A DNA stretch of 64,000 bases from a virus (Duplodnaviria > Heunggongvirae > Uroviricota > Caudoviricetes). The notes under the pieces were generated by a model, which was not told where the DNA came from, made no database searches, and saw only the letters and a list, made by a program, of their open reading frames with translations. The position numbers and the translations under genes are program-made. Positions 1,437 through 64,000 of the stretch are shown here, in pieces (positions within the stretch are counted from its first letter, which is position 1; each line of letters starts with the position of its first letter). Location of the stretch: the IMG/VR virus record IMGVR_UViG_3300000944_000006, positions 18,380 through 82,379 of that record. The stretch is one strand, 5' to 3'.

Positions 1437-2510
1437 CTATGTCAACCCCATAAGTTTAATATCTGTACTTGATTTTCCTGCTAAAGCCGCAGGCGTGTTT
1501 AAGTCATCGAAAATTTTAGGAGCGTTATCATTCATTCTTGTTAGCAGTCTTCGCAATGTTTTTTCAGATTGCTTTAGGCTATCAAACGACCATGTTGTTT
1601 CAAAACGATAATAAGATTTCAACAACGCCAAGCGAATAACTTTACCGTCCCAATCTTTAAGTAAATCATGGATATATACAGTATTGCCGAGAGACTTTGA
1701 CATCTTATCACCGCCAATCTTTAAAAATTCATTATGTATCCAGTATTTTGCAAATGTTTTGCCATTAGCACATTCACTTTGGGCACGTTCATTTTCATGA
1801 TGTGGAAATTTTAAATCTATTCCACCTGTATGAATATCAATAGTTTCGCCCAACGTAGCCTTAGCCATAGCAGAACATTCTATGTGCCAACCAACACGAC
1901 CTTTACCAAATGGTGATATCCATCCGACACCATCTTTTTCAGGCTTCCAAAGAACAAAGTCTTCTACATTCTTTTTAATGTCGGTTGTCGAATCAGAAAC
2001 GCGACTGCCTTTTCGCAATTTAGACAAAGTATTTCCAGATAGTTTTCCATAAGAATCATATTTTGTTACATCGAAAAACACATGCCCGTCTTTGACATAT
2101 GCATAGTCAGTTTCGACAAGACCTTTTATCATATCAATCATGTTTTGAATATTATCTGTGGCTTTTGGTTGATATGTTGGTTCAAGACATCCTAATTTAG
2201 TCAAATCATCTTGATATATCTTTGTATATTTTTCGGTTATCTGCTTTATCGACACACCTGTTTCAACAGACTTATTAATGATTTTGTCATCAATATCTGT
2301 AATATTTCTAGCATACAGAACACTATCTTCGCCATAAACATGACGTAGAACGCGAAAAAGAACGTCTGTGACAATAGCAGCGCGAGCATTGCCTATGTGA
2401 GCATAATTATATACAGTGGGGCCGCAGCCATACATGGTCACGCGCTTGGCATCTTGCGGAACAAAAATTTCTTTGTTGTTTGTGGCAGAATTATATAAAC
2501 GGATTTTCAT
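1437..2510 (-). CDS. cysS: cysteinyl-tRNA synthetase, class I catalytic core; C-terminal region truncated relative to bacterial CysRS
   Basis: CGPTVYNYAHIGNARAA (HIGH-type motif), KMSKS present, RNITDIDDKII, WHIECSAM and DDLNTPAA blocks align with bacterial CysRS. The protein stops about 90 aa short of the E. coli length, immediately convergent with the GIY-YIG gene. Start set at MKIRLYN. Confidence 0.8.
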   Translation of the reverse strand: MKIRLYNSATNNKEIFVPQDAKRVTMYGCGPTVYNYAHIGNARAAIVTDVLFRVLRHVYGEDSVLYARNITDIDDKIINKSVETGVSIKQITEKYTKIYQDDLTKLGCLEPTYQPKATDNIQNMIDMIKGLVETDYAYVKDGHVFFDVTKYDSYGKLSGNTLSKLRKGSRVSDSTTDIKKNVEDFVLWKPEKDGVGWISPFGKGRVGWHIECSAMAKATLGETIDIHTGGIDLKFPHHENERAQSECANGKTFAKYWIHNEFLKIGGDKMSKSLGNTVYIHDLLKDWDGKVIRLALLKSYYRFETTWSFDSLKQSEKTLRRLLTRMNDNAPKIFDDLNTPAALAGKSSTDIKLMGLT

Positions 2511-2878
2511 TTTACTAAATCTTCTCTGTCTACCCATGAGCGTTTTTCACTTGGAAATCGTAAAGATACGTGGCGAGTAAGTATGTAATTCTTTAAATCA
2601 TGTAGTTTTTCGAGTGAAATATTGTAGTTTCTAGTATTAAATGCCATTCCAAGAAATATAGATAATGTTGCATTTAATATAGATGCTTCGACAGCAAACG
2701 CTTCTGCCTTATATGCATATGCGTCATCAGTAATTCTTTCACGCGCCCATAAGTAAGCTACTGGTGCAATATCACAATCTGGGCATGCTCCTTCTAGTAC
2801 AGCCAAAATGTTTATGTCTAAAATTGAATAATTGCTCATGGTGATTCCCAAATCGTTTTCTACAACACATATTATCAT
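2507..2878 (-). CDS. hypothetical protein (123 aa)
   Basis: ORF directly downstream of the promoter-cassette copy at 2836-2915. Confidence 0.5.
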   Translation of the reverse strand: MIICVVENDLGITMSNYSILDINILAVLEGACPDCDIAPVAYLWARERITDDAYAYKAEAFAVEASILNATLSIFLGMAFNTRNYNISLEKLHDLKNYILTRHVSLRFPSEKRSWVDREDLVK

Positions 2879-2915
2879 AATATGTTGTGCATTGCAACAG
2901 TTATTTAAAGAATTT
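2836..2915 (-). promoter_or_regulatory. early promoter/leader cassette copy C (TTGCAA-N17-TAATAT, palindrome TGTTGTGCATTGCAACA, conserved leader ...GTAGAAAACGATTTGGGAATCACC-ATG)
   Basis: Homologous over about 80 nt to the cassettes at 41530, 50855 and 30606. The palindrome overlaps the -35 element. The cassette sits immediately 5' of the ATG at 2878. Confidence 0.6.
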
Positions 2916-20736: not shown

Positions 20737-21100
20737 GTCTTTGCGTAACCGTGTCTACAAATCGAAAATCTTCAAATGTTAATTCGACTGTATGTGAAGG
20801 AAAATTGAAAGATGTGCTATGTATAGTTGACACACAAAGAATAGCTTCAAAATATAAAATAGATTTTTCTTTGTTAAAATGATTTATAACACGTCTTAGA
20901 ATTGAATTTGCGAAGTCAGTGTTCATTTGTTCATCGCTCGTAGGAAAAATATGTGCATAAATCTTGTGCGTACCTACAAAATAACTAACCATAACATTGC
21001 CACTATCTGTAATAATGACATCCCATGCAGTAGAAAAATCTATTTTAAATTTTTGCGGCGTTTCTAACATGGTTGAAATCTTTCTTTTCTTTAAAAGCAC
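20723..21100 (-). CDS. small protein, MYKYKI-family-like (QKFKIDFST)
   Basis: N-terminal region similar to the neighbouring gene. Confidence 0.4.
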   Translation of the reverse strand: MLLKKRKISTMLETPQKFKIDFSTAWDVIITDSGNVMVSYFVGTHKIYAHIFPTSDEQMNTDFANSILRRVINHFNKEKSILYFEAILCVSTIHSTSFNFPSHTVELTFEDFRFVDTVTQRHVQI

Positions 21101-22448
21101 CGTTATTATAAACTGTCGTTAGTTTATTGTCATCAAGTATATCATCTTCGCCTGTTGTATATTCTCCATTTAGATTAACAGATGTCAGAAATCCTTTTTT
21201 GAATTTCTTTGAATTGTTGGTGAATGATTTGAATGCGGCACGGCGTCCACCATCATCAATAAAAGAATTGGCAGAAGACATAAACTGAAACGTGTTTTTC
21301 GAAACATTTTGGTACATGCTTCCGCGCATACACAGCACAAAGTTGTTAATAGATACTTTACTTGCCTTACATAACTTAACAAAATTTTCAAAATCTTTTA
21401 GAGACTGCCAATCATACTGGAACATAATTTTAACACGATGCGAAATGCGATATCCACGGTCTGTTGTTGTCTGGGGGAAAGTTGCCAAAATCTTTTCCAT
21501 AAGCGCAATGACTTCTTCTTGTGTGATGCCGTTACCACATTTAAGATGCACTTTACGTGTTGTATATGATTCTATTTTTTCTTTTAATATTTCGCATATA
21601 TATGTTTCAACAGCATCTTCGGCATTATGTGTGTCAATAGTTAATGCGGTATTATCTGGCGTTTGCTCGCTGTCAAAGCTTTCTAAAAAGTGTTGATATG
21701 CAAGAACTTCGTTTTGAACGCCCCACGACAATGTGACAAGATTGTCATTTCCATTATATCCACTATTATCTGTAAAGAAATTAGAATAAATTTCATTTCC
21801 AATATTTACGGCAGATGTTGCTTCTGTTGTGTCAAAATTTATAAGATGTGCGATAGCTGTTATATCTGCTGTTTCCTTCGAAGACATTTCAGAAAAGCTT
21901 TCATCATGCAGTACAATATCTTCTGGGCCAATATCATCATATCCAATAGACGTTTCTTCGTCTATAATATCTTTTAAAATTTTCTTTATTTCTCGCGAAA
22001 TTGTAGCAACTGTGGATGGTAGCCATATCGCACGTAACAAAGCCTTTTCTATGTGCGACACAAGCCATGCACACTTAGGGTCTGTGTTGATGACTTGGTA
22101 TAAAGGCGTCTTAAACGGTACAACAGACCCTTCTGGCAGGGCTTGTATTTTTATTGGTATAGCGCCGTCATATGTTTTTAAAATATATTCCCATCCTTCG
22201 TAATTAAATTCCATACCAGATTTTTCTGCAACATTTTGTGCAATTTTCAAATCATCTTCTGTGATAGGTTTCGAAAGATGTTGATTTATAAAAAGGTGAT
22301 GTCCTGTATAGACCATTTCCTTAATAGGTTTGTACTTATCGTCAGACGAACCATTTGCTTCACCACACACAGACGCGTGTTCTAATGTTAATTGGTAATG
22401 ACGTGCAGCGTCAAGTTTGTGGAATAATGTGTTAAGAATAATGCTCAT
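21045..22448 (-). CDS. nicotinamide phosphoribosyltransferase (NAMPT/NadV) family protein, divergent; possibly non-catalytic
   Basis: Block EGWEYILKTYDGAIPIKIQALPEGSVVPFKTPLYQVINTDPKCAWLVSHIEKALLRAIWLPSTVATISREIKKIL aligns closely with NAMPT ([74 protein letters not shown]). Where NAMPT has HDFGYRG the phage protein has HDESFSE, and the His247-equivalent position appears to be Asp. Confidence 0.7.
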   Translation of the reverse strand: MSIILNTLFHKLDAARHYQLTLEHASVCGEANGSSDDKYKPIKEMVYTGHHLFINQHLSKPITEDDLKIAQNVAEKSGMEFNYEGWEYILKTYDGAIPIKIQALPEGSVVPFKTPLYQVINTDPKCAWLVSHIEKALLRAIWLPSTVATISREIKKILKDIIDEETSIGYDDIGPEDIVLHDESFSEMSSKETADITAIAHLINFDTTEATSAVNIGNEIYSNFFTDNSGYNGNDNLVTLSWGVQNEVLAYQHFLESFDSEQTPDNTALTIDTHNAEDAVETYICEILKEKIESYTTRKVHLKCGNGITQEEVIALMEKILATFPQTTTDRGYRISHRVKIMFQYDWQSLKDFENFVKLCKASKVSINNFVLCMRGSMYQNVSKNTFQFMSSANSFIDDGGRRAAFKSFTNNSKKFKKGFLTSVNLNGEYTTGEDDILDDNKLTTVYNNGAFKEKKDFNHVRNAAKI

Positions 22449-27193: not shown

Positions 27194-27208
27194 AAAGACT
27201 ATTTATAG

Positions 27209-29412: not shown

Positions 29413-29799
29413 CTATTCGTTATATACTGTAATACCGCTTCTTTCATCAACAATCTTGATTATATTACCTGTCGGCATTTGACCGAAAGAATAAGAATTT
29501 GTCTCTGGCGTTTCTAATATGTTTAAGCGGCGAGAGATTTTCTCGTCTCCTGTCTCAAAATATCCAATAATGTGGTCTTTGTGCATATCACATTCAAAGT
29601 ATAATGTATATTCGCCCGTAATTTTATCAATAGATTCAAATAAAGAAACTCTTTTATAGTCATCAAAATAAAAATCAATAATATTTGTATCTCGATGTTT
29701 TTTGTAACTATCGCTGTAGCATTCTATAAACTTTAAAGAATCTTCATCAGAGTAGATACTTAGACTAATAGACGTTATTTTTATTTTATACTTGTACAT
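29413..29799 (-). CDS. small protein, MYKYKI family
   Basis: MYKYKIKITS. Confidence 0.45.
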   Translation of the reverse strand: MYKYKIKITSISLSIYSDEDSLKFIECYSDSYKKHRDTNIIDFYFDDYKRVSLFESIDKITGEYTLYFECDMHKDHIIGYFETGDEKISRRLNILETPETNSYSFGQMPTGNIIKIVDERSGITVYNE

Positions 29800-29977
29800 T
29801 ATTTTCCAACAATATCAAAATTTTCCAATACGGGCTTGCAATCTGTCCCTCTTTACCTTCTTTGGCTAATTTGTAATGTGTGCTTATTGTAGACCGATTC
29901 ACACCACATATCTTGGCCCATTGATTTTGATTCAAACCCAAAGATTCAATTCTCTCGATATAATTCGTTTTATCCAT
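29786..29977 (-). CDS. helix-turn-helix DNA-binding protein (63 aa)
   Basis: LGLNQNQWAKICGVNRSTIS is an HTH signature. Confidence 0.5.
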   Translation of the reverse strand: MDKTNYIERIESLGLNQNQWAKICGVNRSTISTHYKLAKEGKEGQIASPYWKILILLENNVQV

Positions 29978-30030: not shown

Positions 30031-30606
30031 TTAAAGTTGGCTACGAATCGTTCCGTGGTCGTTCAAGCAAGGGATTTTCATATCATCAATTTTGATATAG
30101 GCGGTTTCTTTTCCAAGAAATTCTTGTTTGCAAACTTCAACGCCGTTCCAATCAATATAACCATATTCAGGGTTTTTAGTAAGGGCTTCAACACTTGCTG
30201 TCAATGATTCAAATGTCCGTTCGCGACGAGCAAAAACATAGTCAGCGCCGCTTGAAATCAACACAGCACCTTCTACAGGGGCTTCGTTTTCTTGGCTTTC
30301 GACATATCCCATACTACCAGTTGTTCCTTGCACAACAGCTATAGACGCTGTTCCGTCAGGATGTAGCCACATCTTTTTGTAATAGGCCATATCAATCATA
30401 CCATCAAAACCTTTACCACTAAAAGCGTTGATAATTTCTTCAACTTCAGACTGCTTAGGCCCGTCTGTGTAAGAAACGTTAATAGATGCGCCACCTGCGT
30501 ATTTTTCAGACCGAACTGAAAACTTCGTTTCTGGGTATTTTGATTTTAAAGTCTTACGAATGATTTTCGCAATTTCGACAACAGATTTATAAACAGCTTC
30601 TGCCAT
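30031..30606 (-). CDS. hypothetical protein (about 191 aa), expressed from promoter cassette copy D
   Basis: Start set at MAEAVYK with GGAGAA 8 nt upstream. Confidence 0.5.
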   Translation of the reverse strand: MAEAVYKSVVEIAKIIRKTLKSKYPETKFSVRSEKYAGGASINVSYTDGPKQSEVEEIINAFSGKGFDGMIDMAYYKKMWLHPDGTASIAVVQGTTGSMGYVESQENEAPVEGAVLISSGADYVFARRERTFESLTASVEALTKNPEYGYIDWNGVEVCKQEFLGKETAYIKIDDMKIPCLNDHGTIRSQL

Positions 30607-30695
30607 AACATTTTCTCCATTTTTGCTACGAACTATAATTATCACACTATGTTGTGTATTGCAACACTTATTTTGATTTATTTTTAAATTTATCT
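30606..30695 (-). promoter_or_regulatory. early promoter/leader cassette copy D (TTGCAA, palindrome TGTTGTGTATTGCAACA)
   Basis: A 34-nt stretch AAATAAATCAAAATAAGTGTTGCAATACACAACA is identical to copy B (50855..). The leader is homologous to copies A and C. Confidence 0.6.
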
Positions 30696-30800: not shown

Positions 30801-30840
30801 CTAAATAAAGAAAAAAGAAGAGGAAATTGTTCCTCTTCTT
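30801..30840 (-). terminator. rho-independent terminator (11-bp stem AAGAAGAGGAA/TTCCTCTTCTT, 4-nt loop, U-run on minus strand)
   Basis: Hairpin 17 nt after the stop of the 30858..31373 gene, followed on the minus strand by TTTTCTTTATTT. Confidence 0.6.
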
Positions 30841-30857
30841 TATAATATCAGCAGGTA

Positions 30858-31373: not shown

Positions 31374-31428
31374 AAATTACGCATAGTGATATCCTTTTCT
31401 GCTAATGTTTAAATCTTTTTACAAAATT

Positions 31429-31499
31429 TGGAGGAATACTAGGGACTCGAACCCCATGCTTTAAGGATTGAAAGCCTTAGCAAACCCGCGTTGTATTCC
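31429..31499 (-). ncRNA. tRNA-like element with non-canonical structure (7-bp acceptor GGAATAC/GTATTCC, T-arm GGGGTTCGAGTCCC, CCA end, short D-arm, apparent 8-nt anticodon loop CTTTCAAT)
   Basis: Hand folding gives a perfect acceptor stem, canonical T-arm and encoded CCA, but only 11 nt for the D region and the stem TAAGG/CCTTA closing an 8-nt loop. Confidence 0.4.
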
Positions 31500-39131: not shown

Positions 39132-39139
39132 TATAAATA
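39132..39139 (+). promoter_or_regulatory. T4-type late promoter box TATAAATA 6 nt upstream of the resolvase ATG
   Basis: Exact TATAAATA at 39132-39139, ATG at 39146. Confidence 0.35.
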
Positions 39140-39822: not shown

Positions 39823-40087
39823 ATACAAATATAAATTGACGGGGGAAATTGAGGAAGGCATTTTTAGTAATTTCTATATGTGGTGCAGTTCGAATAACAC
39901 AGGCAATAAAAATATATTTTTAGGCATTAAAGAATTAGAATCATATAATCTTGGAATTTCCACAGTGTATTTTACTTTGCCGAAAACCATTAATTCCTAT
40001 ATAGCACATGATAAATCTACTATTGTCACTTATTCAATACCAAATGGTGTTGTAGAAATTATATCGGTTGTATCACATGATTCATAA
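39809..40087 (+). CDS. small protein, FKYKLTG...Y-x-IP family member
   Basis: MSKHRYKYKLTGEIEEG ... YSIPNGVVEII. Start set at the ATG at 39809. Confidence 0.5.
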   Translation: MSKHRYKYKLTGEIEEGIFSNFYMWCSSNNTGNKNIFLGIKELESYNLGISTVYFTLPKTINSYIAHDKSTIVTYSIPNGVVEIISVVSHDS

Positions 40088-40355
40088 TTACAAAGTAACA
40101 TGCGAAGTGCAACAACTTAACCGTGGAGTAATTTATCTATATCTCAATGTTTATAAGAATGGTGTTGGTAATAAAATGATTTGTATAGATTCTAATTTAC
40201 TAGAACCATATATTAACATAGGAAACGTAATTTTATATTTTATCACCAAAAATAAAATTCATACTTACTACAGTAAATCGAAAAGTGGTATAACATATGA
40301 TGTTTATACAATACCAGATGACGACATAAGGATTGTCCGATATGTTCAAATATAA
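40068..40355 (+). CDS. small protein, same family
   Basis: C-terminus YDVYTIPDDDIRIV. Confidence 0.5.
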   Translation: MYHMIHNYKVTCEVQQLNRGVIYLYLNVYKNGVGNKMICIDSNLLEPYINIGNVILYFITKNKIHTYYSKSKSGITYDVYTIPDDDIRIVRYVQI

Positions 40356-40629
40356 ATTGACAGGTATTATAACAGATTGTGATGGTGAAACATCCTTATA
40401 CCATTATGTCTCTGAAGAAAAAGAGATATATGTTGATTGTCCCAAATTGCAAAATATACACACAAACAATTCAAAAGTAACTGTATATTTTACAACACCA
40501 AAGTTTATAGAATCTTATTTAAATACAAGCGACAGCGACAGTAATTATGATGTTTATACAATACCAGAAGACGAAATGGAAATTATGTCAAGCGATATCG
40601 TCATAGATAAATGGGAAGATGGTAGTTAA
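40333..40629 (+). CDS. small protein, same family
   Basis: MSDMFKYKLTGIITDCDG ... YDVYTIPEDEMEIM. Confidence 0.5.
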   Translation: MSDMFKYKLTGIITDCDGETSLYHYVSEEKEIYVDCPKLQNIHTNNSKVTVYFTTPKFIESYLNTSDSDSNYDVYTIPEDEMEIMSSDIVIDKWEDGS

Positions 40630-41245: not shown

Positions 41246-41529
41246 ACACCTATTTATAGTGAATCTATTCTATGTTAGAACAGTTTAAGTACGCTTGTAC
41301 CAGAATAACGTCCAACACGGCGGTTTTTACGGCGGCGGTAAGCAGAAGATACACGCGGCTTATCAGATACAACTGTTTTATTGTTGTTATTCTGGCTAGG
41401 TGTTTGGTTTTTCATCTTTGCATGTCCTTTTTAAAATATTAAAGATTGATTAAGGATATACTTATAATTTCATCACGAAAAAAAGTAGATACGTTTTGGC
41501 AATACAGCTATGCATTTATGCAAGGTGAA

Positions 41530-41602
41530 AATCAAAATAAATGTTGTAATGCACAACATACTGTGATAGAATGATTGTAGAAACGATTTGGGAGAATCAA
41601 AT
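41530..41602 (+). promoter_or_regulatory. early promoter/leader cassette copy A (TTGTAA-N17-TAGAAT, palindrome TGTTGTAATGCACAACA, leader ATGATTGTAGAAACGATTTGGGAGAATCAAAT-ATG)
   Basis: -35 at 41544-41549, -10 at 41567-41572. The 32-nt leader with GGGAGAA is identical to that of copy B. Confidence 0.65.
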
Positions 41603-41875
41603 ATGGCTTTTAAGTTCGAAAATATTGCTGAAATAGGTGAAACTATTAAATCATTTAGTTTTAAACCATTTCCAGATAGAGAAGACATGTATGTCCAAGG
41701 TAAAGTTATTGCCAAAGGTGATATAAATCATCCTACGCATGGTAACTACTATAAAGGATATACGGTCATAGCAGAAGTTTCAACAGATGGTAATATCAAA
41801 CAAGGCGACACCTTCTATGTTCCGTTTGAACTTTCTTTTATGGACTTTGATGAACGTGTTTCTAAAGTTGACTAA
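41603..41875 (+). CDS. hypothetical protein (90 aa) expressed from cassette copy A
   Basis: MAFKFENIAEIGE. Start ATG placed 8 nt after GGGAGAA. Confidence 0.55.
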   Translation: MAFKFENIAEIGETIKSFSFKPFPDREDMYVQGKVIAKGDINHPTHGNYYKGYTVIAEVSTDGNIKQGDTFYVPFELSFMDFDERVSKVD

Positions 41876-42447
41876 AGTGAAGTAGCAAGTCCAGTATGCT
41901 TTTCTATAGACTTCAAAAGCATATCGTTATATATGCCTTCGTCTTTAGATTTTGTTTTAACAGACGTTCCTCTTACAGAAAGATATTCAACATCATATAA
42001 ATCCATTGACGTAAGTGTTATACGCACGACATTAACGCCTTTTGAATTTCTTCCTATGCGAAATTGTAGGCCATCATTAGAACCAACAAGTTTTTTTGCT
42101 CCTATCATATAAAGGGCTTTGTTGCCAATCTGCCTAACGATTTCTTTCGAAACAGTCATATTAGTAGCTTCGTTTAAACTTGTTTGTGATACTTTACCTG
42201 TTTTAATAGGGTTACTTCCGACAACATATGTTTTTAAAGAACCTGTGCCTTTATATATTTTATATTGAGTGCCAGACTTTATGTTATATTTTTTAACAGC
42301 AGATTTGGCTTTTTCATTTAAACTTTCCAAGGAAAATTCGACTACTTTGTTAATGTTTCCAGAAAATTCACACACATATACTGTTTTATCAGAAGATTTT
42401 CCTTCACGAACAAGTTCTAATTTTTCAACCAATAGTTTATGTGTCAT
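41872..42447 (-). CDS. hypothetical protein (191 aa)
   Basis: ORF. Confidence 0.5.
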   Translation of the reverse strand: MTHKLLVEKLELVREGKSSDKTVYVCEFSGNINKVVEFSLESLNEKAKSAVKKYNIKSGTQYKIYKGTGSLKTYVVGSNPIKTGKVSQTSLNEATNMTVSKEIVRQIGNKALYMIGAKKLVGSNDGLQFRIGRNSKGVNVVRITLTSMDLYDVEYLSVRGTSVKTKSKDEGIYNDMLLKSIEKHTGLATSL

Positions 42448-42448
42448 A

Positions 42449-43945
42449 TTATATTTTCTCCCACCTATCCGTTATAGGGCGTCCTACAGGGGCCATAGAA
42501 AAGTTTTTGTATCCATACTTAGATATAAGATTAACAATGTTCTTAACGTACTCATGATTGCAGTCAGACACCAAACGATTTACTAAACCATGTTCATCAA
42601 TATATTCCAGTGTTAAAACACAATGGTCGTAATCATGTGAATGGTCGTCATTAATTGAACATACAGTAAGACGTAGCGCATCTTTGGGGAAGTTGTAATC
42701 CTGTCTAAGACGATAATAAACTTCCAATGCCATGTCTTCGCAGTTATGTCCTAAAATACCATTTTCAAAAACAAATGTAGACGTTCCTGCTACTGTTATA
42801 TCGTAACACTTCTTCACGCCATTAGAAGTAATATCTTTAGTTTTTATCCTAGTTTGCCCAAGACCTTCAAAACCATAGTCTTTTTGATGTGAAGAATTTT
42901 TGTTATATATTACTCTATATATAGGCTGTGTTCCAGAACCGCCATGTTTCTCTTGCGTGTAAATTCTAGCAGACTTACCAACACGCAGTAAAGCGGCCTG
43001 TATCCATTCAGCAAATTTTTTACATGACGTTGAATATGTTTTATCAGGTTCCGTACCCCATCCACCGTTACTAGATTTTACATGATAATGTCCATCACCT
43101 AAAAAATATCCTTCAAGTATATAATTTAGACATACTTCTGGAAGATTTAAGTATTTGTCCATACGAATATCAAAAGAATTTTCCTTAAGTGGTTTTAAGA
43201 AATCCTTAAACCAAGACTTCAAAAATCTTACACAAGGAACACCAGAATTATTTTTAAATAATGTATAAGGAATTTTATATTTATCTAAAATAGGAAGAAT
43301 AAATTCAGGAATGTCATGTCCAGATGTAGAAACTTTACTAATTTTATTACTTCCCTGCGGACGGTCTACCCATCCTTCTGCAAGATAATGTCCCACAACA
43401 AACCAAATATCGTCATCAAGAACATTCTCAATTTCTGTGTATGGTAGATTTAAAGCACACGGAACATATTCCCAATGAACACTCTTTCCATCAATAATTT
43501 CTTTCAATTTTCTTTTTGTGTATCCGTTTTGTTGTTGTTTTTCTTTAGACCACATATTATGATTTTCTGTAACAACAATTTCATTTCCGTTATGAAACGG
43601 TACAGTAAAGGTTTCTAAATTTCCTTTATCCATTTTATTTATGATAACTTTATCAATATATTTTTTTTCGACAAAATCATAAGACATACAAACATCACCT
43701 ATTTGTGCATCTTTGATTGGAACAGCTACATATTCATCATTACGTTTTAACCATATTTTTTGATTTTCTTCTACACAATCACCTAATAGAATAGGTCTGC
43801 CAAAGAAATCCACATCAACAGTAGGACGCGTCCAGTGTTCAGGTACTGCCCAATTATTTTGGTCTGAACGCCATACGAAAATAGATTTAACATCCTCATG
43901 TACTTTTTTAAAAGTAGCTACCTGTGCGTGTGTAAGTTTTAACAT
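42449..43945 (-). CDS. intein-containing protein: 153-aa extein resembling a papain/transglutaminase-like Cys hydrolase, split by a 345-aa LAGLIDADG intein
   Basis: Intein blocks: C at N-junction (LLGD/CVEENQ), VVTENHNMW (T-x-x-H block B), two LAGLIDADG motifs (FVVGHYLAEGWV, ILEGYFLGDGHY), C-terminal YDITV...FENGILGHN followed by C. Spliced extein junction GDCEDMA (G-x-C-x-x-x-A) plus downstream HSHDYDH suggests a Cys-His-Asp hydrolase. Confidence 0.6.
   Translation of the reverse strand: MLKLTHAQVATFKKVHEDVKSIFVWRSDQNNWAVPEHWTRPTVDVDFFGRPILLGDCVEENQKIWLKRNDEYVAVPIKDAQIGDVCMSYDFVEKKYIDKVIINKMDKGNLETFTVPFHNGNEIVVTENHNMWSKEKQQQNGYTKRKLKEIIDGKSVHWEYVPCALNLPYTEIENVLDDDIWFVVGHYLAEGWVDRPQGSNKISKVSTSGHDIPEFILPILDKYKIPYTLFKNNSGVPCVRFLKSWFKDFLKPLKENSFDIRMDKYLNLPEVCLNYILEGYFLGDGHYHVKSSNGGWGTEPDKTYSTSCKKFAEWIQAALLRVGKSARIYTQEKHGGSGTQPIYRVIYNKNSSHQKDYGFEGLGQTRIKTKDITSNGVKKCYDITVAGTSTFVFENGILGHNCEDMALEVYYRLRQDYNFPKDALRLTVCSINDDHSHDYDHCVLTLEYIDEHGLVNRLVSDCNHEYVKNIVNLISKYGYKNFSMAPVGRPITDRWEKI
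42743..43777 (-). mobile_element. LAGLIDADG homing-endonuclease intein (about 345 aa)
   Basis: Boundaries computed from junctions ...PILLGD|CVEEN and ...GILGHN|CEDMA. Confidence 0.6.
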
Positions 43946-44817: not shown

Positions 44818-45156
44818 TTACAAAAACTTCTTAAGGATAGAAGATGTTTTCTTAGTGAGAACAATATCACTATATCTTTTGTTGTTATATTCAAAAAGCA
44901 TAGCTGTTCCGCTATGACCTTTAACACCTAAAAAATATTTTTCACCCACTTCTAAAACAACTGAATTTTTATTTTCTTCTACTTTGTCACCTTTAAAATT
45001 TTTAAAACGAATTGGTTTCCCTACACGACCTTTGTTTAATTTCACATACATGTCGCGTAAATCTAAGTCTGTTTTAATGTTTTCTCTCAAAACGTCTTCA
45101 TCGTCATTATTTGATGAACGCATTTCTACAAGATGTTGTTTAATATTCTTTGTCAT
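44818..45156 (-). CDS. putative capsid-targeted internal protein 1 (N-terminal MTKNIKQHLVE/MR leader)
   Basis: N-terminus conserved with the 45376 and 45671 genes and ends in L-x-E, the T4 prohead protease cleavage motif. Confidence 0.5.
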   Translation of the reverse strand: MTKNIKQHLVEMRSSNNDDEDVLRENIKTDLDLRDMYVKLNKGRVGKPIRFKNFKGDKVEENKNSVVLEVGEKYFLGVKGHSGTAMLFEYNNKRYSDIVLTKKTSSILKKFL

Positions 45157-45164
45157 GTTATTTC

Positions 45165-45374
45165 CTATCCTTCTTCATCACTCACGCACAATTCGCTCTG
45201 TGGATTATCTTCGCAGAATAATCTTGCACCGTAAGGGGCTGTGATTGTAGTGTTATCTCTTATGGCAGTATCTTCACTACTTCCTTTGGTTGTGGCACAC
45301 CCTAATGAAGACGCTGCAACCATAAGACAAACGAATAAAAAACAAAGTGATTTTAATTTAAAATTCTTGAACAT
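45165..45374 (-). CDS. small lipoprotein
   Basis: Signal peptide with lipobox SSLGC. Confidence 0.45.
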   Translation of the reverse strand: MFKNFKLKSLCFLFVCLMVAASSLGCATTKGSSEDTAIRDNTTITAPYGARLFCEDNPQSELCVSDEEG

Positions 45375-45375
45375 G

Positions 45376-45696
45376 TTATTTCCTAAATATTCTTCCAGAA
45401 TTAAAGATTATACCTTCGTCTTTAAGATAATCTTTATAGTGCGAATACTCTTCTACAAATTCATCATAAGCCTTTTCGACTTTTTTTATGCGATTTAAAG
45501 CTTTACGTGACTTTCTAACTTTAAATTCTTTTTTAAGATTTTGTACATCTTTTCTAAGTTCGAAAACTACGTTGTCAAATTTTTCGACAACGTTATCACC
45601 AGAAATCCCGTTAGTTAAACCTTCATCAAGACGTATTTCTGCAAGATGTTCGTGGATTTTCTTTGTCATGTTATTTTTGATTCTCTTCTTTAACAT
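45376..45696 (-). CDS. putative capsid-targeted internal protein 2 (MTKKIHEHLAE/IR leader)
   Basis: Shared N-terminal leader. Confidence 0.5.
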   Translation of the reverse strand: MLKKRIKNNMTKKIHEHLAEIRLDEGLTNGISGDNVVEKFDNVVFELRKDVQNLKKEFKVRKSRKALNRIKKVEKAYDEFVEEYSHYKDYLKDEGIIFNSGRIFRK

Positions 45697-46660
45697 ATTC
45701 AGGTGTTTTATAATTAGATTTAGTGTTTTTATTACCTAGCATATATGCTTCGCCAAGTGCGTCTTGAACAGACGGGGAAAACTTTAATTTATATTTCTTT
45801 GCGATTTTTTCCAAAGCGTCACTAAAGGAAACTTTCTTACCTTCGTTCAAAGTACCATCACTTTTTTGCTTTTTAGCGACTTTAGGATTATCAACAACAC
45901 GTCCAACAGCAGCTTTACGTGCAACATGAACTTGGTAGCCGTTGCGACCAATAATTCCATAACCTTTACGCGACTTTAAGAAGTTGTTTGCATCACTTTC
46001 TGTGTTGAAACAATATGTCTGATACATTTTACCATCTTTTTTAAATACGGAACGAACATCACCATCAGAAGCAGATTGTATTTTATTCCATTCCGTAGGT
46101 TTTACAGGTTCGTTTTCGTCAAGAGAAACTTCTTCTTTGAAGTATTCAACTTTACTGTGCGAAATCATTTGACGATAATTACCAGATTTTTTAGGATAGT
46201 CTCTTTCACTTACGCGCGAAGGATTAATTTCTTTCCAAGAATTATTTTGCTTTCCAAGAAATTCGCCTAGTGCATTAGCATTTTTAAAAACTTTAACTTT
46301 ATATCTAGGACGACGACCACTTACAGTCATTTTTTCAAATTCTTTTTCTGCGGCATAAAATTTATTCTCGTTCAGATACCCATCATCAGATTGTTTGACA
46401 GTTACGTTATCACCGCCTTCATTATCTTTAGCAACATGTATCATTTCACCTTGTTTGCCAATAACACCAAGCTTATCACCGCCATTACCAACGATTTTTT
46501 CTATATATGAATTAGCAGCAGATTCGGAATTAAATTTAATAGTATCAAAGATTTTACCATTCTTTTCGAATGTTGACGTAACGCCACAATCAATTTTTTC
46601 TTTGTTAGGGGATTTCTTTGCAGAACGCATTTCCCAAAGGTGTTCGCGAATATTCTTCAT
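45671..46660 (-). CDS. putative capsid-targeted internal protein 3 (MKNIREHLWE/MR leader) with internal duplication
   Basis: Shared leader. Two internal repeats (FDTIKFNSESAANSYIEK...IHVAKDN and YQTYCFNTESDANNFLKS...VHVARKA). Confidence 0.5.
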   Translation of the reverse strand: MKNIREHLWEMRSAKKSPNKEKIDCGVTSTFEKNGKIFDTIKFNSESAANSYIEKIVGNGGDKLGVIGKQGEMIHVAKDNEGGDNVTVKQSDDGYLNENKFYAAEKEFEKMTVSGRRPRYKVKVFKNANALGEFLGKQNNSWKEINPSRVSERDYPKKSGNYRQMISHSKVEYFKEEVSLDENEPVKPTEWNKIQSASDGDVRSVFKKDGKMYQTYCFNTESDANNFLKSRKGYGIIGRNGYQVHVARKAAVGRVVDNPKVAKKQKSDGTLNEGKKVSFSDALEKIAKKYKLKFSPSVQDALGEAYMLGNKNTKSNYKTPEYVKEENQK

Positions 46661-50711: not shown

Positions 50712-50854
50712 CATGAAGCTATTTATTGAGTGTCTTATTTCTTCATTATACATAAAAGTTATCTGGGGAAAACGATGTTCGACATATGAAGAATCATGTA
50801 TAGTTTGCGAAAAGTGGAAAGAACATGACGAAATGTTCGAATAATATATAAATA

Positions 50855-50935
50855 AAAATAAATCAAAATAAGTGTTGCAATACACAACAGTCTATGCTAC
50901 ATAATGATTGTAGAAACGATTTGGGAGAATCAAAA
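50855..50935 (+). promoter_or_regulatory. early promoter/leader cassette copy B (TTGCAA, palindrome TGTTGCAATACACAACA, leader identical to copy A)
   Basis: The 32-nt leader ATGATTGTAGAAACGATTTGGGAGAATCAAA is identical to copy A. The upstream 34 nt are identical to copy D. Confidence 0.65.
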
Positions 50936-51100
50936 ATAACTGAATATACAGATTTAAAAGCGAACGTTATTAAAGGTGTTATATCTTCATTAACAAAAAA
51001 AGGTCTGTTGTTCGATGCATATGGCGACCACGAAAGCAAAAAAGTTCTGAACTGGATTTCAGACAAAGGTATTGATGCTTATTACGAAAACTTTGGTTAA
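50936..51100 (+). CDS. ORF downstream of cassette copy B whose expected ATG is ATA (start uncertain; possibly defective)
   Basis: Where copy A has ...GGGAGAATCAAATATGGC, copy B has ...GGGAGAATCAAAAATAACT. The only in-frame ATG (50894) lies inside the promoter -10 region. Confidence 0.3.
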   Translation: MTEYTDLKANVIKGVISSLTKKGLLFDAYGDHESKKVLNWISDKGIDAYYENFG

Positions 51101-54235: not shown

Positions 54236-54350
54236 GTGCGCGTAACCAAGCTGTGAAAATATCTTCGTCAGAAACTACAATATTATGCTTAGTCATAAGT
54301 TTCTGTAATTTTTGTATAATACTATGCTTCACAAGCAAAACATTCTCCAT
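54147..54350 (-). CDS. hypothetical protein downstream of nrdA
   Basis: Start set at internal MENVLLVK. Confidence 0.35.
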   Translation of the reverse strand: MENVLLVKHSIIQKLQKLMTKHNIVVSDEDIFTAWLRAHEGVWNDDVPDDFDNVMSKIIPHVNVHFE

Positions 54351-57135
54351 TTGATGCCTGAACACCTGCTTCAGACCGTATATAATATAATGACTTAATA
54401 TAAGGATTGACAAAAGCTTCTGAATGTATCATCGCAACATATTCTGGGTCTTCATCAGCAGATATATACAAATTTATAGATTGTGCTTGGTCAATATATT
54501 TTTGTCGTTGTGCCGCATAACGTATAATCGTCAATTGGTCAATCTCAAAAGCTGTTTTGAACAAAGCCTTTTCATCGTCACTAAAAAATTCTAAATGCTG
54601 AACAGACCCTTTATTATCGACAATGGAATCAATAATTGCATCTGTATATTGTCCATGCTTTTCAAGATATTCGATAAGAACTGGATTTATACGGTTCATT
54701 TTACCTGCGGCTGTACCTTGCGTATAAACATTTTTAGGAAATGGTGATATGCCTTCAGAAACACTACCACACACAATAGCAGATGATAGAGTAGGTGCTA
54801 CTGCCATAAGTGTAGCATTGCGTCGACCAAGACCCTTACAAGATTCTGGTTCACCTAATTCTGCGGCAAGCCATTCCGTAGCAGCTTCTGCTTGTACTTG
54901 GATATTTTTAAATATTTCCACATTTTTAAATTGCGCTTCAAGGCTTTCCCAAGGAATACCATTTTTCTGAAAATATGTGTGAAGACCGAGTGTGCCCAAG
55001 CCTAATGCACGGAAACGTTGTGTGAAACGAACGACTTTTTCAAGACCTTCCATATCTTTACCGCGCTGTATAAGGTCTTCGCAAACGCAATCTAAAAGAA
55101 CAATTGCTGTTTCAATCGCATTCGTATCTTTCCATTCATCATATTTTGCCAGATTCATAGACGATAGAACGCAAGAAAATGTATGTTCTTCATCAGAAGG
55201 TAGCGCAATTTCAGAGCAGTTAAATGTTTTCATGCCCTGTGCAATAAATATGTGTTCATCTGTATGTACAGTTGGACAATATACATCTTCTTTACCATAA
55301 TACTCTATAGATTTTATTTTGTAACCCTTTTTAGAATTATCACGATACTTTCGATTTTCTAAATGAACACCTTTTCGGGATAAAAATCCTGTATGTTTTT
55401 CGACAACCAAGCAATCATTTTTATTTCCTACAATAAGTCTCCAACAATCTTTTGTGTTATATAGCTTTTGTCCACCTTTTCCATCTGGCAATAATGATTC
55501 ACCTGCTTTTCTTAGTATTCGTATAGAAGTTTGAAGTCCTAAGTTTTGGAATAAAATTTGAAGTTCTTTAATAAAATCTAAGTTAATATCTGTGTATGAT
55601 AAATGTATAGGATTTCCTTTTGAAGGAGATACATTTATTGTACCATCTGCGTATAATAGCCCGCGAACATATTCCCATTGTGTCTTTTCGTCAGATTCCC
55701 ATATCCAAGAAGGGACATACCCTTTTTCAAAATTCAAGGCTTTTTTAAGAGTAGCAGAAGACAATGTTCTTTTTCTATGGCTTCCTTCGCGAACATGTGA
55801 TTCGCGAAACTTAGCAGGTGTTCTTCCGCGATATTTTCCAGTTTTTCCTATTTCATATTTATCGCATCCGTATTTGTAATGTATTCGGTCAAATTTTTCT
55901 TTGATTTCATTCTCTAAATCAAAATCATTTTCCCAAAGACACAGATGAATAGAATTTTTGTGTTGCGTTCCGTCCGATTGATACTGACCTAACAAAAATG
56001 CTTCATCTTGCATATCGGCATTTCCAAAAATACCTTTGTTAGTTTGAATTGCAATTTTATGACCTATGTTCAGGTCTTTCAATTCAATTCGTGTGATATT
56101 ATTTCTTGCATCAATAACAGGAAACCCATGATTATCCGTGGCTTTAATTTCCATTCCATTTTCTAATGTAACTTTATAAACATCTTGGTTTTCGCCACGT
56201 AAAATCATTTTTGTAGAATTTACCTTATTTTCGCCGTCAAATAATACCAAAGATTCATTTATATCATGAAGTTCTTTAGCTGTTAAATATCCATATGACG
56301 AAACTACGCGCGTATCACCTGTTATACAAAGATTAGAAGCTTTGATTAGCATACCACTATTTTTAATAGCAGGTGGTGCTAAATCATTCATGCGGTCAAT
56401 AAAACAAAAATATCCCTTGCCTGTAACAAGCTTACGCAACAACGCACGTTTAAAGCGAGAATTTGCTTCTTTGTCGCCATTCACTAATCGTGCAATAAAT
56501 TCATCAGAAATATTCCAACCAATATTTAAATCATCTGGATAATTTTTCATATGGTCGCAAATATCCCAAAAATCTCCATGTTCGATTGGAAGATAGCCTG
56601 CCCATGCACCGCGTCTCGAAGACCCTTGTGACACTTGAACTGCTGTATTAACATGTCCTTGGATAACAGGAACTACCCCATCTGCAACACCGTCTACACC
56701 ATATTTCTCGCCACGCGGACGTATATCCCCAAGATATGATGACGTTCCAAAGCCATATTTTGAAAGCATTGCCGTTTCTGTATAAGACCCAAAGAAACCT
56801 GCTATACTATCTGGTGTATAGTTTCCAGAACAGCTTACAGAAAGCCCTTTTTCCGTCCCTGTATTGGACATAACAGGCGTTGAAAGAGAAAGATAACCTT
56901 TCCACACAACATCAAAGAAACGCTTCTCCCAATGCTTAGAATTAGGCATATGGGCGGCGAGTGTTTTAGATATTCTCTTTAATTGCTCTTTATATGTTGT
57001 AGCTTCGAACAGATATTTTTGTTTGAACATAGACCATCCAATAGTTGTAAACCACATAGGAAGGTCGCCATCTTCTTGCATTTTTTTCCGCTCTTGCGAA
57101 AGTTCTTCATAAGTATTTTCGTTTAAATTATCCAC
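54322..57135 (-). CDS. nrdA: ribonucleotide reductase class I large subunit (no ATP-cone), interrupted by an intein at the active-site cysteine
   Basis: Extein junction ...IKASNL|CSEIALPS restores the catalytic SNLCSEI motif. C-terminal CFAC pair present. Extein about 567 aa. Confidence 0.8.
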   Translation of the reverse strand: MDNLNENTYEELSQERKKMQEDGDLPMWFTTIGWSMFKQKYLFEATTYKEQLKRISKTLAAHMPNSKHWEKRFFDVVWKGYLSLSTPVMSNTGTEKGLSVSCSGNYTPDSIAGFFGSYTETAMLSKYGFGTSSYLGDIRPRGEKYGVDGVADGVVPVIQGHVNTAVQVSQGSSRRGAWAGYLPIEHGDFWDICDHMKNYPDDLNIGWNISDEFIARLVNGDKEANSRFKRALLRKLVTGKGYFCFIDRMNDLAPPAIKNSGMLIKASNLCITGDTRVVSSYGYLTAKELHDINESLVLFDGENKVNSTKMILRGENQDVYKVTLENGMEIKATDNHGFPVIDARNNITRIELKDLNIGHKIAIQTNKGIFGNADMQDEAFLLGQYQSDGTQHKNSIHLCLWENDFDLENEIKEKFDRIHYKYGCDKYEIGKTGKYRGRTPAKFRESHVREGSHRKRTLSSATLKKALNFEKGYVPSWIWESDEKTQWEYVRGLLYADGTINVSPSKGNPIHLSYTDINLDFIKELQILFQNLGLQTSIRILRKAGESLLPDGKGGQKLYNTKDCWRLIVGNKNDCLVVEKHTGFLSRKGVHLENRKYRDNSKKGYKIKSIEYYGKEDVYCPTVHTDEHIFIAQGMKTFNCSEIALPSDEEHTFSCVLSSMNLAKYDEWKDTNAIETAIVLLDCVCEDLIQRGKDMEGLEKVVRFTQRFRALGLGTLGLHTYFQKNGIPWESLEAQFKNVEIFKNIQVQAEAATEWLAAELGEPESCKGLGRRNATLMAVAPTLSSAIVCGSVSEGISPFPKNVYTQGTAAGKMNRINPVLIEYLEKHGQYTDAIIDSIVDNKGSVQHLEFFSDDEKALFKTAFEIDQLTIIRYAAQRQKYIDQAQSINLYISADEDPEYVAMIHSEAFVNPYIKSLYYIRSEAGVQASNGECFACEA
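55219..56328 (-). mobile_element. LAGLIDADG homing-endonuclease intein in nrdA (370 aa)
   Basis: Starts CITGDTRVV, contains FLLGQYQSDGT and RGLLYADGT LAGLIDADG motifs, ends ...GMKTFN before Cys+1. Penultimate residue is Phe rather than His. Confidence 0.7.
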
Positions 57136-61653: not shown

Positions 61654-63093
61654 TTAAATTCCTTTTATTATATTTAGAACAAATTTTCTTACGCGCAGGT
61701 CAACCTTTTCGCCCATCAATACAGACGCGAACATTTCTGCCCAAAATTCTCTTACATTTGTTCTAGCATATTCAGTCACGAACCATGAATCATCATAGAT
61801 AAAATCGCCATTTCTTCTTTTGGTTTTTGGTGTTAGTATTCTACGAAGCTTTTGTAATGTTGTCGGACGGCCTTTATAAGTCATGGTAACAAATCCTTTT
61901 GTAAGCATTTCATGAGACTTTCCCATATAATCCCCACTACCATCTGATGTTACGACTATGCCAAAAGGTTTATTTCTAGCACCTTCTTTACCAAAAGACA
62001 GTATTTGGCGACCAGAAGACATATCCAAGACATCTCTTACCATTTCTTCGCCCTTAGAAAGACCATATTTTTTATTTTTGCTTTTATTCCAATAAAATTT
62101 AATATCGTTTGTGTTTTTTATAGATGAAAAAAGGGCTTTTTTAAAAACTGTATAATCTGCGCTACGAACCATGTGCCTTTTAAATTCTTCATCTTTTCTT
62201 ATTTTAGCGTTTTTACCATTAGACTTTTTAGCTTGCGAATAAACTTCTTCTAATGCCTTTCTATCCTTTGAAGAAAAATATTCATAATCTATTTTGTGAC
62301 CTATTTCATGAATAATAACCCGAATAAAAAATCGGTCTGTGTCATGGCGAGGGTCGATAACAAGTTCTTTACTATTAGAATAGTAAAGTCCTGCTGCACG
62401 TCTTGATGAAATAGTCCCAATTATTATATCAGAATTGTCCCATACATTTTCTATTTTTGTACGTTTCATGATACGATATGCTACATTAAGACTTTTCTTA
62501 ACTTTATCTAACTTCTTTGGGTCAAAATTTTCTCTTACCTTAATTTCATTTTTACCTACTTTGATAGTGTTGGTAGATGTTTTGTTAAAAGATGATTTTA
62601 CTTCATCCCAATTAACTTTTTCGGAAAATCTTTTAACCCAATCATGATTAAGCTTTTTATTATTTGTTGCCCATTTATAAAAATCTATAGACGTTTTAAA
62701 AACAATTTTTTCAAGGGCTTTTGGAAATCTTCTTGATACAGCTTCACATGCTTTTAAGTACATGTCCACATTACCATCAAGTTTAGGATAATGAAATGCA
62801 TGTCTAAGTTCTTCGACATAATCATACATTAAACTGTCTGAATATTCCAAACCACTCATAAATTCATTATCAGACCCGTCCCATGATGTGTTGATAAATT
62901 TAGAAAAGTCTTTCTTAGCAATAAACACGTAATGTTTTTCATCCAAACCATTACTATTTTCCGTGTTATAGGGAAAAATAACCATATGATTAGTACGAAA
63001 AGGTGTGCGCGTTGCCATTCTTGCTATACAAGAATTAGAATCGTCGTAATACGGCCTTTCGAATCTTGCCATTTTATTATTCACCATCCACAT
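61654..63093 (-). CDS. large protein with HExxH zinc-metallopeptidase motif
   Basis: VIIHEIGHKIDYEY contains HEIGH. Confidence 0.45.
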   Translation of the reverse strand: MWMVNNKMARFERPYYDDSNSCIARMATRTPFRTNHMVIFPYNTENSNGLDEKHYVFIAKKDFSKFINTSWDGSDNEFMSGLEYSDSLMYDYVEELRHAFHYPKLDGNVDMYLKACEAVSRRFPKALEKIVFKTSIDFYKWATNNKKLNHDWVKRFSEKVNWDEVKSSFNKTSTNTIKVGKNEIKVRENFDPKKLDKVKKSLNVAYRIMKRTKIENVWDNSDIIIGTISSRRAAGLYYSNSKELVIDPRHDTDRFFIRVIIHEIGHKIDYEYFSSKDRKALEEVYSQAKKSNGKNAKIRKDEEFKRHMVRSADYTVFKKALFSSIKNTNDIKFYWNKSKNKKYGLSKGEEMVRDVLDMSSGRQILSFGKEGARNKPFGIVVTSDGSGDYMGKSHEMLTKGFVTMTYKGRPTTLQKLRRILTPKTKRRNGDFIYDDSWFVTEYARTNVREFWAEMFASVLMGEKVDLRVRKFVLNIIKGI

Positions 63094-63748: not shown

Positions 63749-63771
63749 AATATTATTTATAAGATAACAAA

Positions 63772-64000
63772 TCAGTTGAACCAATCCGCTAACTGACTTA
63801 CAACAAGTTTTTTCCACATTGGGTCTGATAAATCAGCCGCATAAGGCACAAGATATCCAAATTCACGAATAGGTATGTACTTGTCTTTCGGCAGTCTACT
63901 AAACCAATCTTTACAAAGTTTTAAAAGAACTTTTTTATTCTCTAAAGGAACGTCATATCTATCGCCAACAAATTCAAGAATATCTTCAAGACGCCCAAAA
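63772..64000 (-). CDS. partial CDS running off the window edge (C-terminal about 75 codons)
   Basis: Open minus-strand frame ending ...QLADWFN stop at 63772. The N-terminus lies outside the window. Confidence 0.4.
   Translation of the reverse strand, partial: FGRLEDILEFVGDRYDVPLENKKVLLKLCKDWFSRLPKDKYIPIREFGYLVPYAADLSDPMWKKLVVSQLADWFN

Follow-up and report, generated by a model that had tools for sequence, protein, structure and literature searches.

At least six copies of a promoter-like cassette with an invariant dyad in a distant T4-like phage

A 64,000-nt stretch of a tailed phage genome (Caudoviricetes; positions 18,380 to 82,379 of the IMG/VR record IMGVR_UViG_3300000944_000006; source contig, 151 kb), henceforth referred to as the window, carries closely related segments in front of four genes. 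Each segment is built around the inverted repeat TGTTG-N7-CAACA (the dyad). The original prediction took the segments for early promoter and leader cassettes of the kind described in T4-type phages as promoter early stem-loop (PeSL) elements, and proposed as an alternative that the dyad is an operator. The locus thus raises the question of what is repeated, and whether the dyad acts as a terminator stem or as a protein-binding site. We consider it probable, with real room for doubt, that the segments are a family of host-type promoters that recombines in a PeSL-like manner and carries the dyad as an operator; promoter activity, timing and operator function are predictions from the DNA.

The exact dyad was found four times in the window, compared with 0.10 expected, and none of 100 shuffled sequences reached four. 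The sequence at each of these sites placed the copies (A to D; Table 1) where they had been predicted. A nhmmer profile built from the four copies scored its members at 44-72 bits and the next-best window site at 9 bits; given this drop, the window contains exactly four copies and no degenerate ones. Exact-protein look-ups led to contigs from an independent Logan assembly (run SRR2835688). One of these is 100% identical to the window across 10.9 kb, and two flank contigs match it exactly over overlaps of 811 nt and 12.3 kb. The flanks extend the window leftwards by 9.9 kb and rightwards by 9.1 kb, to 83,042 nt in total. Two more exact dyads (copies E and F) lie in the left flank, which brings the number to six in 83,042 nt versus 0.14 expected (Poisson P ~1e-8). 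When all 5+7+5 inverted repeats in these 83 kb are counted, TGTTG is also the most frequent arm. All six copies are intergenic, and on the TTGY strand each is followed, 27-50 nt downstream, by a Shine-Dalgarno (SD) sequence and a start codon. The cassettes are 5-28 kb apart on both strands and form no dense tandem array. A motif scattered at random positions would have spoken against a regulatory role; instead, all four window dyads are intergenic and face the downstream gene. The proteins encoded downstream share no similarity with one another, as had been predicted.

We considered whether the copies reflect shared ancestry only, either as recent duplicates or as an assembly artefact, with the palindrome incidental. 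There are just six copies, and some pairs have long exact identities. However, the independent Logan assembly agrees at 100% identity and has its branch points exactly at the repeats: one contig of SRR2835688 starts exactly at the cassette D repeat, and the record behind a second contig (L236) stops inside the 32-mer common to cassettes A and B. Contig ends at repeats fit an assembler working with 31-mers, a size that we assumed. Because the Logan contigs break exactly in the cassette repeats, the repeats are independently confirmed as real. The segments adjacent to the arms have strongly diverged whereas the arms have not, six out of six copies have the same orientation relative to the downstream SD sequence and start codon, and copy B has a unique middle segment and so is not a simple mis-join. 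We regard an explanation by ancestry or artefact alone as highly improbable.

The full copies, aligned on the dyad and on TGTAG, share a set of modules comprising an A-rich, UP-like tract, TTGYAA, TRTG, a -10 hexamer, TGTAG and the SD sequence. The A-rich tract reads AAATCAAAATAA in A, B and D. The -35 hexamer TTGYAA corresponds to dyad positions 3-8, TRTG lies exactly 3 nt past the dyad, and the -10 hexamers (TAGAAT, CATAAT, TAATAT, AATTAT and TACAAT) lie 3-4 nt before TGTAG. Because the distance from the -10 hexamer to TGTAG is fixed, the A of TGTAG is the likely transcription start, which would give a leader of ~24 nt. Counted from this base, the dyad covers about -37 to -21 and includes the -35 hexamer in five copies. 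The anatomy differs in several details from the one first proposed. The TGTTG-N7-CAACA core stands, but the formula given for it was too variable, the true core being TGTTG(T/C)AAT(G/A)CACAACA. A 17-nt spacer had been assigned to each copy; this holds for A and C only, as D has a spacing of 18 nt, and B and E have one of 19 nt. The conserved leader, TGTAGAAACGATTTGGGAGAATCA (24 nt), is exact only in A and B, whereas in C it has an indel and in D it is substantially different. What ends 8 nt before ATG is the SD sequence GGGAG and not the whole leader. In A, D, E and F, a GGGAG or GGAG precedes ATG by 7-8 nt, and C has GGGA. Copy B does not have the ATG ascribed to every cassette, having ATA where A has ATG.

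The two flank copies differ in completeness. Copy E is complete, with TGTTGTAAAACACAACA, aac, TATG, gca, TACAAT, ata and TGTAG in order, later followed by GAGGAGAAATC-ATG, and occupies a 91-nt gap before a 64-aa gene. Copy F begins directly after the stop codon of the upstream gene and reads TGTTGTTATATACAACA-TGTATTGAGAAAAAAGGAGAAATCAAT-ATG. It has kept the dyad and the SD leader and has lost ~19 nt with TRTG and the -10 hexamer.

From this arrangement we infer that the full cassettes are host sigma-70-type promoters, and the analogy with T4-type phages suggests that they are early ones. Cassette A, in a gap of 187 nt, is the only candidate promoter for a plus-strand gene that lies between minus-strand genes. 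Cassette D is found ~145 nt behind a strong terminator with a 12-bp stem that closes the upstream gene, so cassette D opens a new transcription unit. Several observations weigh against the promoter assignment and the timing. The hexamers are only moderate (-35, 4/6; -10, 4-5/6; generic score ~9/12), and such pairs occur near chance in AT-rich DNA (337 found in the window versus ~297 expected). The call therefore rests on conservation and position rather than on consensus strength. The 19-nt spacers of B and E are suboptimal. In addition, other likely promoters of the window are perfect TTGACA-17-TAnnnT sequences that have no dyad. The dyad promoters are thus a distinct subset, and may differ in timing or factor from the TTGACA promoters.

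We considered whether the cassettes are middle-type promoters, in which the dyad binds a phage activator or sigma appropriator that replaces -35 recognition, like the MotA box of T4. The -35 hexamer is non-consensus while other promoters have perfect TTGACA, the conserved block reaches well past the hexamer, and the two copies with 19-nt spacers would be poor promoters without help. Phage nt-1 has middle-type stem-loop cassettes (PmSL) besides its PeSLs (PMC4122927). However, the core here is TGCAA/TGTAA and not the Mot box TGCTT (compare the nt-1 PmSL, GGGTTGCTTCGG), we saw no MotA or AsiA homologue in the 83 kb, and A and C, with the optimal 17-nt spacer and TGn, should work by the host enzyme alone. 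We find the middle-type assignment unlikely.

We next considered the mosaic structure of copy B. Its positions 50853-50889, which hold the A-rich tract and the whole dyad, are identical to D over 37 nt (34 nt had been reported), and its positions 50903-50934, from the 3' end of the -10 hexamer to one base before the start codon, are identical to A over the 32 nt originally noted. The 13 nt in the middle are unique to B and include 2 extra nt. Informative sites were defined as positions at which B agrees with either A or D but not with both, and significance was corrected for 33 breakpoints (Bonferroni). To the left of the breakpoint, 12 out of 12 sites are D-like and, to the right, 18 out of 22 are A-like (Fisher p = 3.3e-6, corrected 1.1e-4). 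Judged from these sites, copy B is a statistically supported recombinant of a D-type and an A-type cassette. It also looks damaged, with ATA for ATG, a 19-nt spacing and an open reading frame (ORF) that matches only the C-terminal half of PHROG families. Exchange between cassettes is a prediction of the PeSL model, and is shown here within one genome only.

The genes around the cassettes identify the phage. The primase is of the T4 gp61 type and adjoins the nrd genes; it has ≤37% identity to anything known (34-37% across searches), and its closest matches are from T4-like cyanophages. The left flank contig codes for gp32, the late co-activator gp33 and the baseplate protein gp53. Given this combination of a gp61 primase beside nrd genes with gp32, gp33 and gp53 in the flank, the phage is, by gene content, a distant T4-like myovirus of a new lineage, and comparison with the PeSLs is therefore apt. 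PeSLs are repeated composites of ~100 bp with an AT-rich tract, a sigma-70-like promoter, a stable stem-loop, an SD sequence and an ATG. Their stem-loop, which lies between or over the -35 and -10 hexamers, terminates transcription in lacZ fusions, and the elements are dense in hyperplastic regions by ORFans and at indels that separate sister phages (PMC2839356). In nt-1 and KVP40, the PeSL promoter is TTGYVH-N17-TAWWAT and the stem is A3-4G3-loop-C3T3-4 (PMC4122927).

We fetched positions 50.5-56.5 kb of nt-1 for a direct comparison. The -35 hexamer TTGCAC of the nt-1 PeSL is part of the ascending stem arm, an example being GGGTTGCACTATGCAGCCCTTTTT; the register is the same as in TGTTGCAAT...CAACA here. 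The two families also share a repeated intergenic composite of ~80-100 bp, located next to ORFans in a T4-like genome, with an AT-rich tract, a -35 hexamer (TTGYAA) that fits TTGYVH, a conserved leader, an SD sequence, an ATG and recombination between copies. The gene of cassette A, the ORF of cassette B and a small helix-turn-helix (HTH) gene in the operon of cassette D are ORFans, matching only themselves. The inverted repeat is where the families part. Here its arms are 5-6 bp long, AT-rich and weak, and no U-tract follows; the dyad hairpins fold at -2.7 to -7.0 kcal/mol (z +0.55 to -1.3), whereas the nt-1 PeSL stems, folded in the same way, reach -14.1, -18.0 and -16.3 kcal/mol (z -4.3 to -5.1) and have U-tracts. 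An intrinsic-terminator scan found none at any dyad; G-C pairs make up two out of the five in the arms, and there is no T-run downstream. The weak hairpin without a U-tract means that the terminator half of a PeSL is lacking. The arm sequence is invariant here, unlike in PeSLs, and the copies are sparse (six in 83 kb, on both strands), at a density below that of the described hyperplastic regions. Finally, the cassette shows no sequence similarity to published PeSLs, and blastn of it against phages returned only chance matches (E ≥ 0.8), all in coding regions.

These data bear on the possibility that the cassettes are true PeSLs, with the palindrome as an attenuator or terminator of upstream transcription and with ORFans moved via mini-circles, as in RB49/phi1 and nt-1/KVP40. 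The T4-like genome, the matching layout with an inverted repeat over the -35 hexamer, the mosaic copy B and the flanking ORFans all agree with this, as does the position of E and F in short gaps between small genes on the same strand. The hairpin energies do not agree with it. Moreover, upstream of D a separate strong terminator is already present where one is needed, and excision between direct pairs of cassettes would take 5-28 kb and not single ORFans. We rate the full PeSL interpretation as rather unlikely. As far as their sequences tell, the cassettes are PeSL-like in layout and exchange but without the PeSL terminator. The proposed likeness thus survives for the homologous promoter-leader cassettes, the T4-type genome, the -35 hexamer in an inverted-repeat arm and the recombinant copy B, and falls away for the terminator stem and the dense array.

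Across the six copies, there are no changes at the 10 arm positions, at least five at the seven loop positions and at least five in the 3 nt after the dyad; the loop varies at five out of its seven positions. The probability that the 10 arm positions stayed unchanged at the loop rate is ~1e-3, or ~7e-3 for the seven arm positions outside the TTG of the -35 hexamer. Copy F, which has no promoter, has the most divergent loop (TTGTTA for TTGYAA) and perfect arms. Because this promoter-less copy keeps the arms and not the loop, the constraints on the two appear separate: -35 function seems to constrain the loop, and a different factor the arms. We counted covariation on the dyad, and since the arms never vary there were no compensatory changes to count. 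A hairpin would tolerate compensatory changes, whereas a dimeric sequence-specific binder gives invariant half-sites and a variable centre. Given the invariant arms, the variable loop, the weak hairpin and the lack of compensatory changes, the dyad is most likely an operator, that is, the predicted site of a dimeric DNA-binding protein. It is read as an operator rather than a terminator because it is too weak for the latter and its arms are unchanged while the loop drifts. The suggestion of an operator for a dimeric regulator, made from the palindrome at the outset, is thereby favoured, also by the presence of a gene for an Xre-type HTH protein, whose binding to the dyad is predicted.

Conserved arms could also be explained at the RNA level, if the hairpin and the GGAGAA(A)TCA leader formed a processing, stability or translational-control site, RegB-like cleavage at GGAG being one example. 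Copy F lacks a promoter while retaining the dyad and the SD leader, so that the dyad would be transcribed there only in a longer mRNA; B and E lie within series of genes on one strand; and GGAGAA(A)TCA is nearly exclusive to the cassettes, where four out of its five occurrences in the 83 kb lie. On the other hand, the dyads of A, C and D precede the predicted start and follow a terminator or a divergent gap, so they would rarely be found in RNA. The hairpins are no stabler than shuffled sequence, no compensatory changes were seen, and Rfam gave nothing but three tRNAs and no match at the cassettes. We therefore hold an RNA-level role to be very unlikely.

The operator interpretation has its own difficulties. 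The six copies are closely related, and the invariance of the arms could partly result from homogenization by gene conversion. A literature search found no known operator with TGTTG-N7-CAACA. Only one of the six cassettes has a gene for the candidate HTH protein, which has no homologues to compare with the dyad. The sites of TnrA/GlnR (TGTNA-N7-TNACA), which have the same geometry, are a lead only, as positions 5 and 13 differ. The LexA box (CTGT-N8-ACAG) fits only copy C, with one mismatch, and was rejected.

The best candidate for the binder is the 63-aa Xre-type HTH protein encoded behind cassette D. It matches the Pfam Xre-like-HTH family at E = 8e-4, which is below the family cutoff. Its AlphaFold2 model has a mean confidence (pLDDT) of 86.5 and four helices, and the top Foldseek matches are Xre-fold dimers, including HipB, C-proteins, HigA, 434 Cro and Aca11 (probability 0.75-0.99, E ≥ 0.19). 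We found no homologue of this protein beyond itself, and its sequence is similar neither to an Aca family nor to a solved structure. The gap of 53 nt between the preceding gene, which encodes an LPD29 domain, and the HTH gene shows no visible terminator or promoter.

We compared this arrangement to systems in which a small protein acts on a dyad within a promoter. In acr-aca operons, an HTH autorepressor binds an inverted repeat inside its own strong core promoter (PMC9410906, PMC6765145). Cassette D is similar in that a promoter with an inner inverted repeat precedes a gene whose product has a conflict-associated domain (LPD29), and then a gene for a small Xre-type HTH protein. It differs in that no anti-CRISPR was identified here and in that the dyad is also found at five loci without an HTH gene, as in a regulon and not a single operon. 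By this analogy, cassette D resembles acr-aca operons without being a member of the class. The operators of Cro/CI in temperate phages and of HipB are likewise comparable, as the 17-bp dyad has 5-bp half-sites ~12 bp apart and lies over the -35 hexamer, which fits an Xre-fold dimer. HipB operators read TATCC-N8-GGATA. Unlike the Cro/CI system, this is a lytic-type T4-like genome with a single operator per promoter, and no repressor-antirepressor switch is evident. The early promoters of phage N4 contain a hairpin with a 3-nt loop that is recognized by the giant virion RNA polymerase. They share with the cassettes a short conserved hairpin inside a repeated early promoter, whereas here the loop is 5-7 nt, the -35 and -10 hexamers are normal and the genome is T4-like.

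In the explanation that we favour, all six sites belong to a single family of regulatory cassettes in a distant, new T4-like phage. The unmodified host polymerase would start the small, mostly ORFan genes behind them soon after infection, by analogy with T4-type phages. The copies descend from one another and swap segments by recombination. A dimeric protein bound at -37 to -21 would block the polymerase and switch the whole set off together, the candidate being the small Xre-type HTH protein from cassette D's own operon. A more specific version is that this Cro/Aca-like protein binds every dyad and shuts off a regulon of dispersed immediate-early, possibly anti-defence genes after a first burst, while the cassettes also capture ORFans by recombination; as a whole, we see this version as unlikely.

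Repeated promoter cassettes are thought to let T4-type phages shuffle and express accessory genes. The present lineage is very distant from those in which PeSLs were described and appears to follow the same logic, with the terminator stem replaced by a short invariant dyad. The early shut-off of T4 relies on remodelling of sigma (AsiA, MotA, ADP-ribosylation), and to our knowledge T4-type phages do not control early promoters by a DNA-binding repressor. If the dyad is an operator, it would represent early-gene shut-off by a classical repressor in a T4-like phage, and a single motif would help to find the genes with which an uncultured phage takes over its host and counters defence. If it is only a relic, the cassettes would be an ordinary case of conserved early promoters. 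The cassettes are a variant of a known thing and would not surprise a specialist; the operator, if proven, is the interesting part.

We searched for relatives of the phage and its cassettes. Megablast gave no match between the 11.5 kb around A and B and any of 50,697 phage records. A 17-mer scan of IMG/VR retrieved 67 loci, each with a single hit in an unrelated coding or other context and none with promoter flanks, and the 24-mer AAATAANTGTTGYAATRCACAACA had 0 matches in metagenome and genome collections. A 508-aa protein has relatives at 60-64% identity that share no other gene with the window, and for a 329-aa protein no relatives were found. In any collection searched, no genome was closer than ~37% primase identity.

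Table 1. Positions of the cassettes, the genes behind them and other features (window numbering; copies E and F are numbered on the left flank contig L235)
Feature	Position	Strand	Details
Cassette A	41529..41605	+	A-rich tract 41529-41541; exact dyad 41542-41558; -35 TTGTAA 41544-41549; TGTG 41562-41565; -10 TAGAAT 41567-41572 (17-nt spacer); TGTAG 41576-41580, predicted start ~41579; SD GGGAG 41590-41594; ATG 41603
Gene behind cassette A	41603..41875	+	90-aa ORFan; 3' overlap of 4 nt with convergent gene 41872-42447
Cassette B	50853..50938	+	Chimeric; exact dyad 50873-50889; -35 TTGCAA 50875-50880; -10 CATAAT 50900-50905 (19-nt spacer) or TACATA 50898-50903 (17-nt spacer); TGTAG 50909-50913; SD 50923-50927; ATA 50936
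ORF after cassette B	50936..51100	+	54 codons from ATA; no SD-positioned ATG
Cassette C	2837..2912	-	Exact dyad 2899..2883; -35 TTGCAA 2897..2892; -10 TAATAT 2874..2869 (17-nt spacer, TGn); TGTAG 2864..2860; SD GGGA 2849..2846; ATG 2839
Genes behind cassette C	1437..2839	-	110-aa protein without assigned function (2507-2839), then 366-aa protein resembling cysteinyl-tRNA synthetase (CysRS-like; 1437-2537)
Cassette D	30604..30686	-	A-rich tract and dyad 30686..30650 (exact dyad 30666..30650); -35 TTGCAA 30664..30659; TGTG 30646..30643; -10 AATTAT 30640..30635 (18-nt spacer); GTAG 30629..30626; SD GGAG 30618..30615; ATG 30606
Intrinsic terminator upstream of D	30814..30841	-	12-bp stem and T-run, 17 nt after the upstream gene; outside the repeat
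D operon, gene 1	30031..30606	-	191 aa, LPD29 domain (Pfam PF18847, E = 1.5e-22); phrog_15549
D operon, gene 2	29786..29977	-	63-aa Xre/Cro-type HTH; candidate dyad binder
Copy E	L235 3955-4022	- (window)	Dyad 3955-3971; ~3.1 kb left of the window start
Copy F	L235 9050-9096	- (window)	Dyad 9050-9066; ~8.2 kb left of the window start
Perfect-TTGACA promoters without dyad (examples)	50001	+
	35106, 33589, 32719, 26361, 24382	-
T4 late-promoter motif TATAAATA (examples)	711-718, 39132-39139, 50847-50854	+
	27200-27207, 41251-41258, 63754-63761	-
Repeat families in small-gene cluster	45139-45167, 45357-45385, 45652-45680, 46614-46657	-

The genes behind the cassettes are mostly without relatives. 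The protein encoded behind cassette A has no PHROG, Pfam or NCBIfam match and, among 5.8 billion proteins, matches only itself. The ORF after cassette B has weak profile matches to positions 39-85 out of 94 of phrog_25342 and 42-89 out of 114 of phrog_18303. Its sole in-frame ATG (50894) lies within the -10 region and has no ribosome site, and a metagenome gene caller predicted 68 aa from this internal ATG. Only the ORF itself was found in homologue searches, and a search of a representative library gave only long repetitive proteins. The ORF is probably a 5'-truncated remnant, judging from its profile matches. We also considered that cassette B was inserted into a gene, and rejected this since the 43-aa ORF upstream is not the missing N-terminus and its sequence is unlike one. 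Behind cassette C, the CysRS-like protein has 45-49% identity to jumbo-phage copies. The G+C content of the LPD29 gene (0.40) differs from that of the window (0.337), and this difference, 40% versus 34%, suggests recent acquisition.

Coding in the window is nearly all on the minus strand, and there are three tRNAs. Its products include ribonucleotide reductase subunits, nicotinamide phosphoribosyltransferase (NAMPT), a DNA ligase, the CysRS-like protein and GIY-YIG Seg-like endonucleases. The large subunit of ribonucleotide reductase (937 aa; 54322-57135, minus strand) is split by an intein with a LAGLIDADG domain, and a second protein with intein/LAGLIDADG signatures (498 aa) is encoded at 42449-43945 (minus strand). 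The NAMPT gene is located at 21045-22448 (minus strand); the PeSL-rich segment of nt-1 that we fetched also contains a phosphoribosyltransferase gene.

The T4 late-promoter motif TATAAATA occurs 19 times in the window, compared with 12.6 expected. Fourteen of the 19 sites are ≤70 nt upstream of an ORF start, and six lie only 3-8 nt before ATG, a distance that would give nearly leaderless late mRNAs. One site is 18 nt upstream of the cassette B dyad. Two free-standing homing endonuclease genes of the GIY-YIG Seg-like type are found at 782-1420 (plus strand) and 63077-63817 (minus strand), the former as a plus-strand island that follows a TATAAATA motif. The conserved N-terminal motif of this endonuclease contains the break point of a Logan contig (window position 811), which suggests that more paralogues are encoded elsewhere in the genome.

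Other repeats occur among small genes. The segment 44818-47063 (minus strand) is a cluster of small paralogous genes with repeated 5' ends and ribosome sites. The two copies of a 32-nt direct repeat (94% identity, 250-nt spacing; 40296-40327 and 40546-40577, plus strand) fall within the adjacent small plus-strand ORFs 40068-40355 and 40333-40629, which are probably tandem paralogues. Finally, positions 31420-31457 resemble the T-arm and 3' end of a tRNA (GGGACTCGAACCCC, plus strand); the sequence was called by neither ARAGORN nor Rfam and may be a tRNA fragment.

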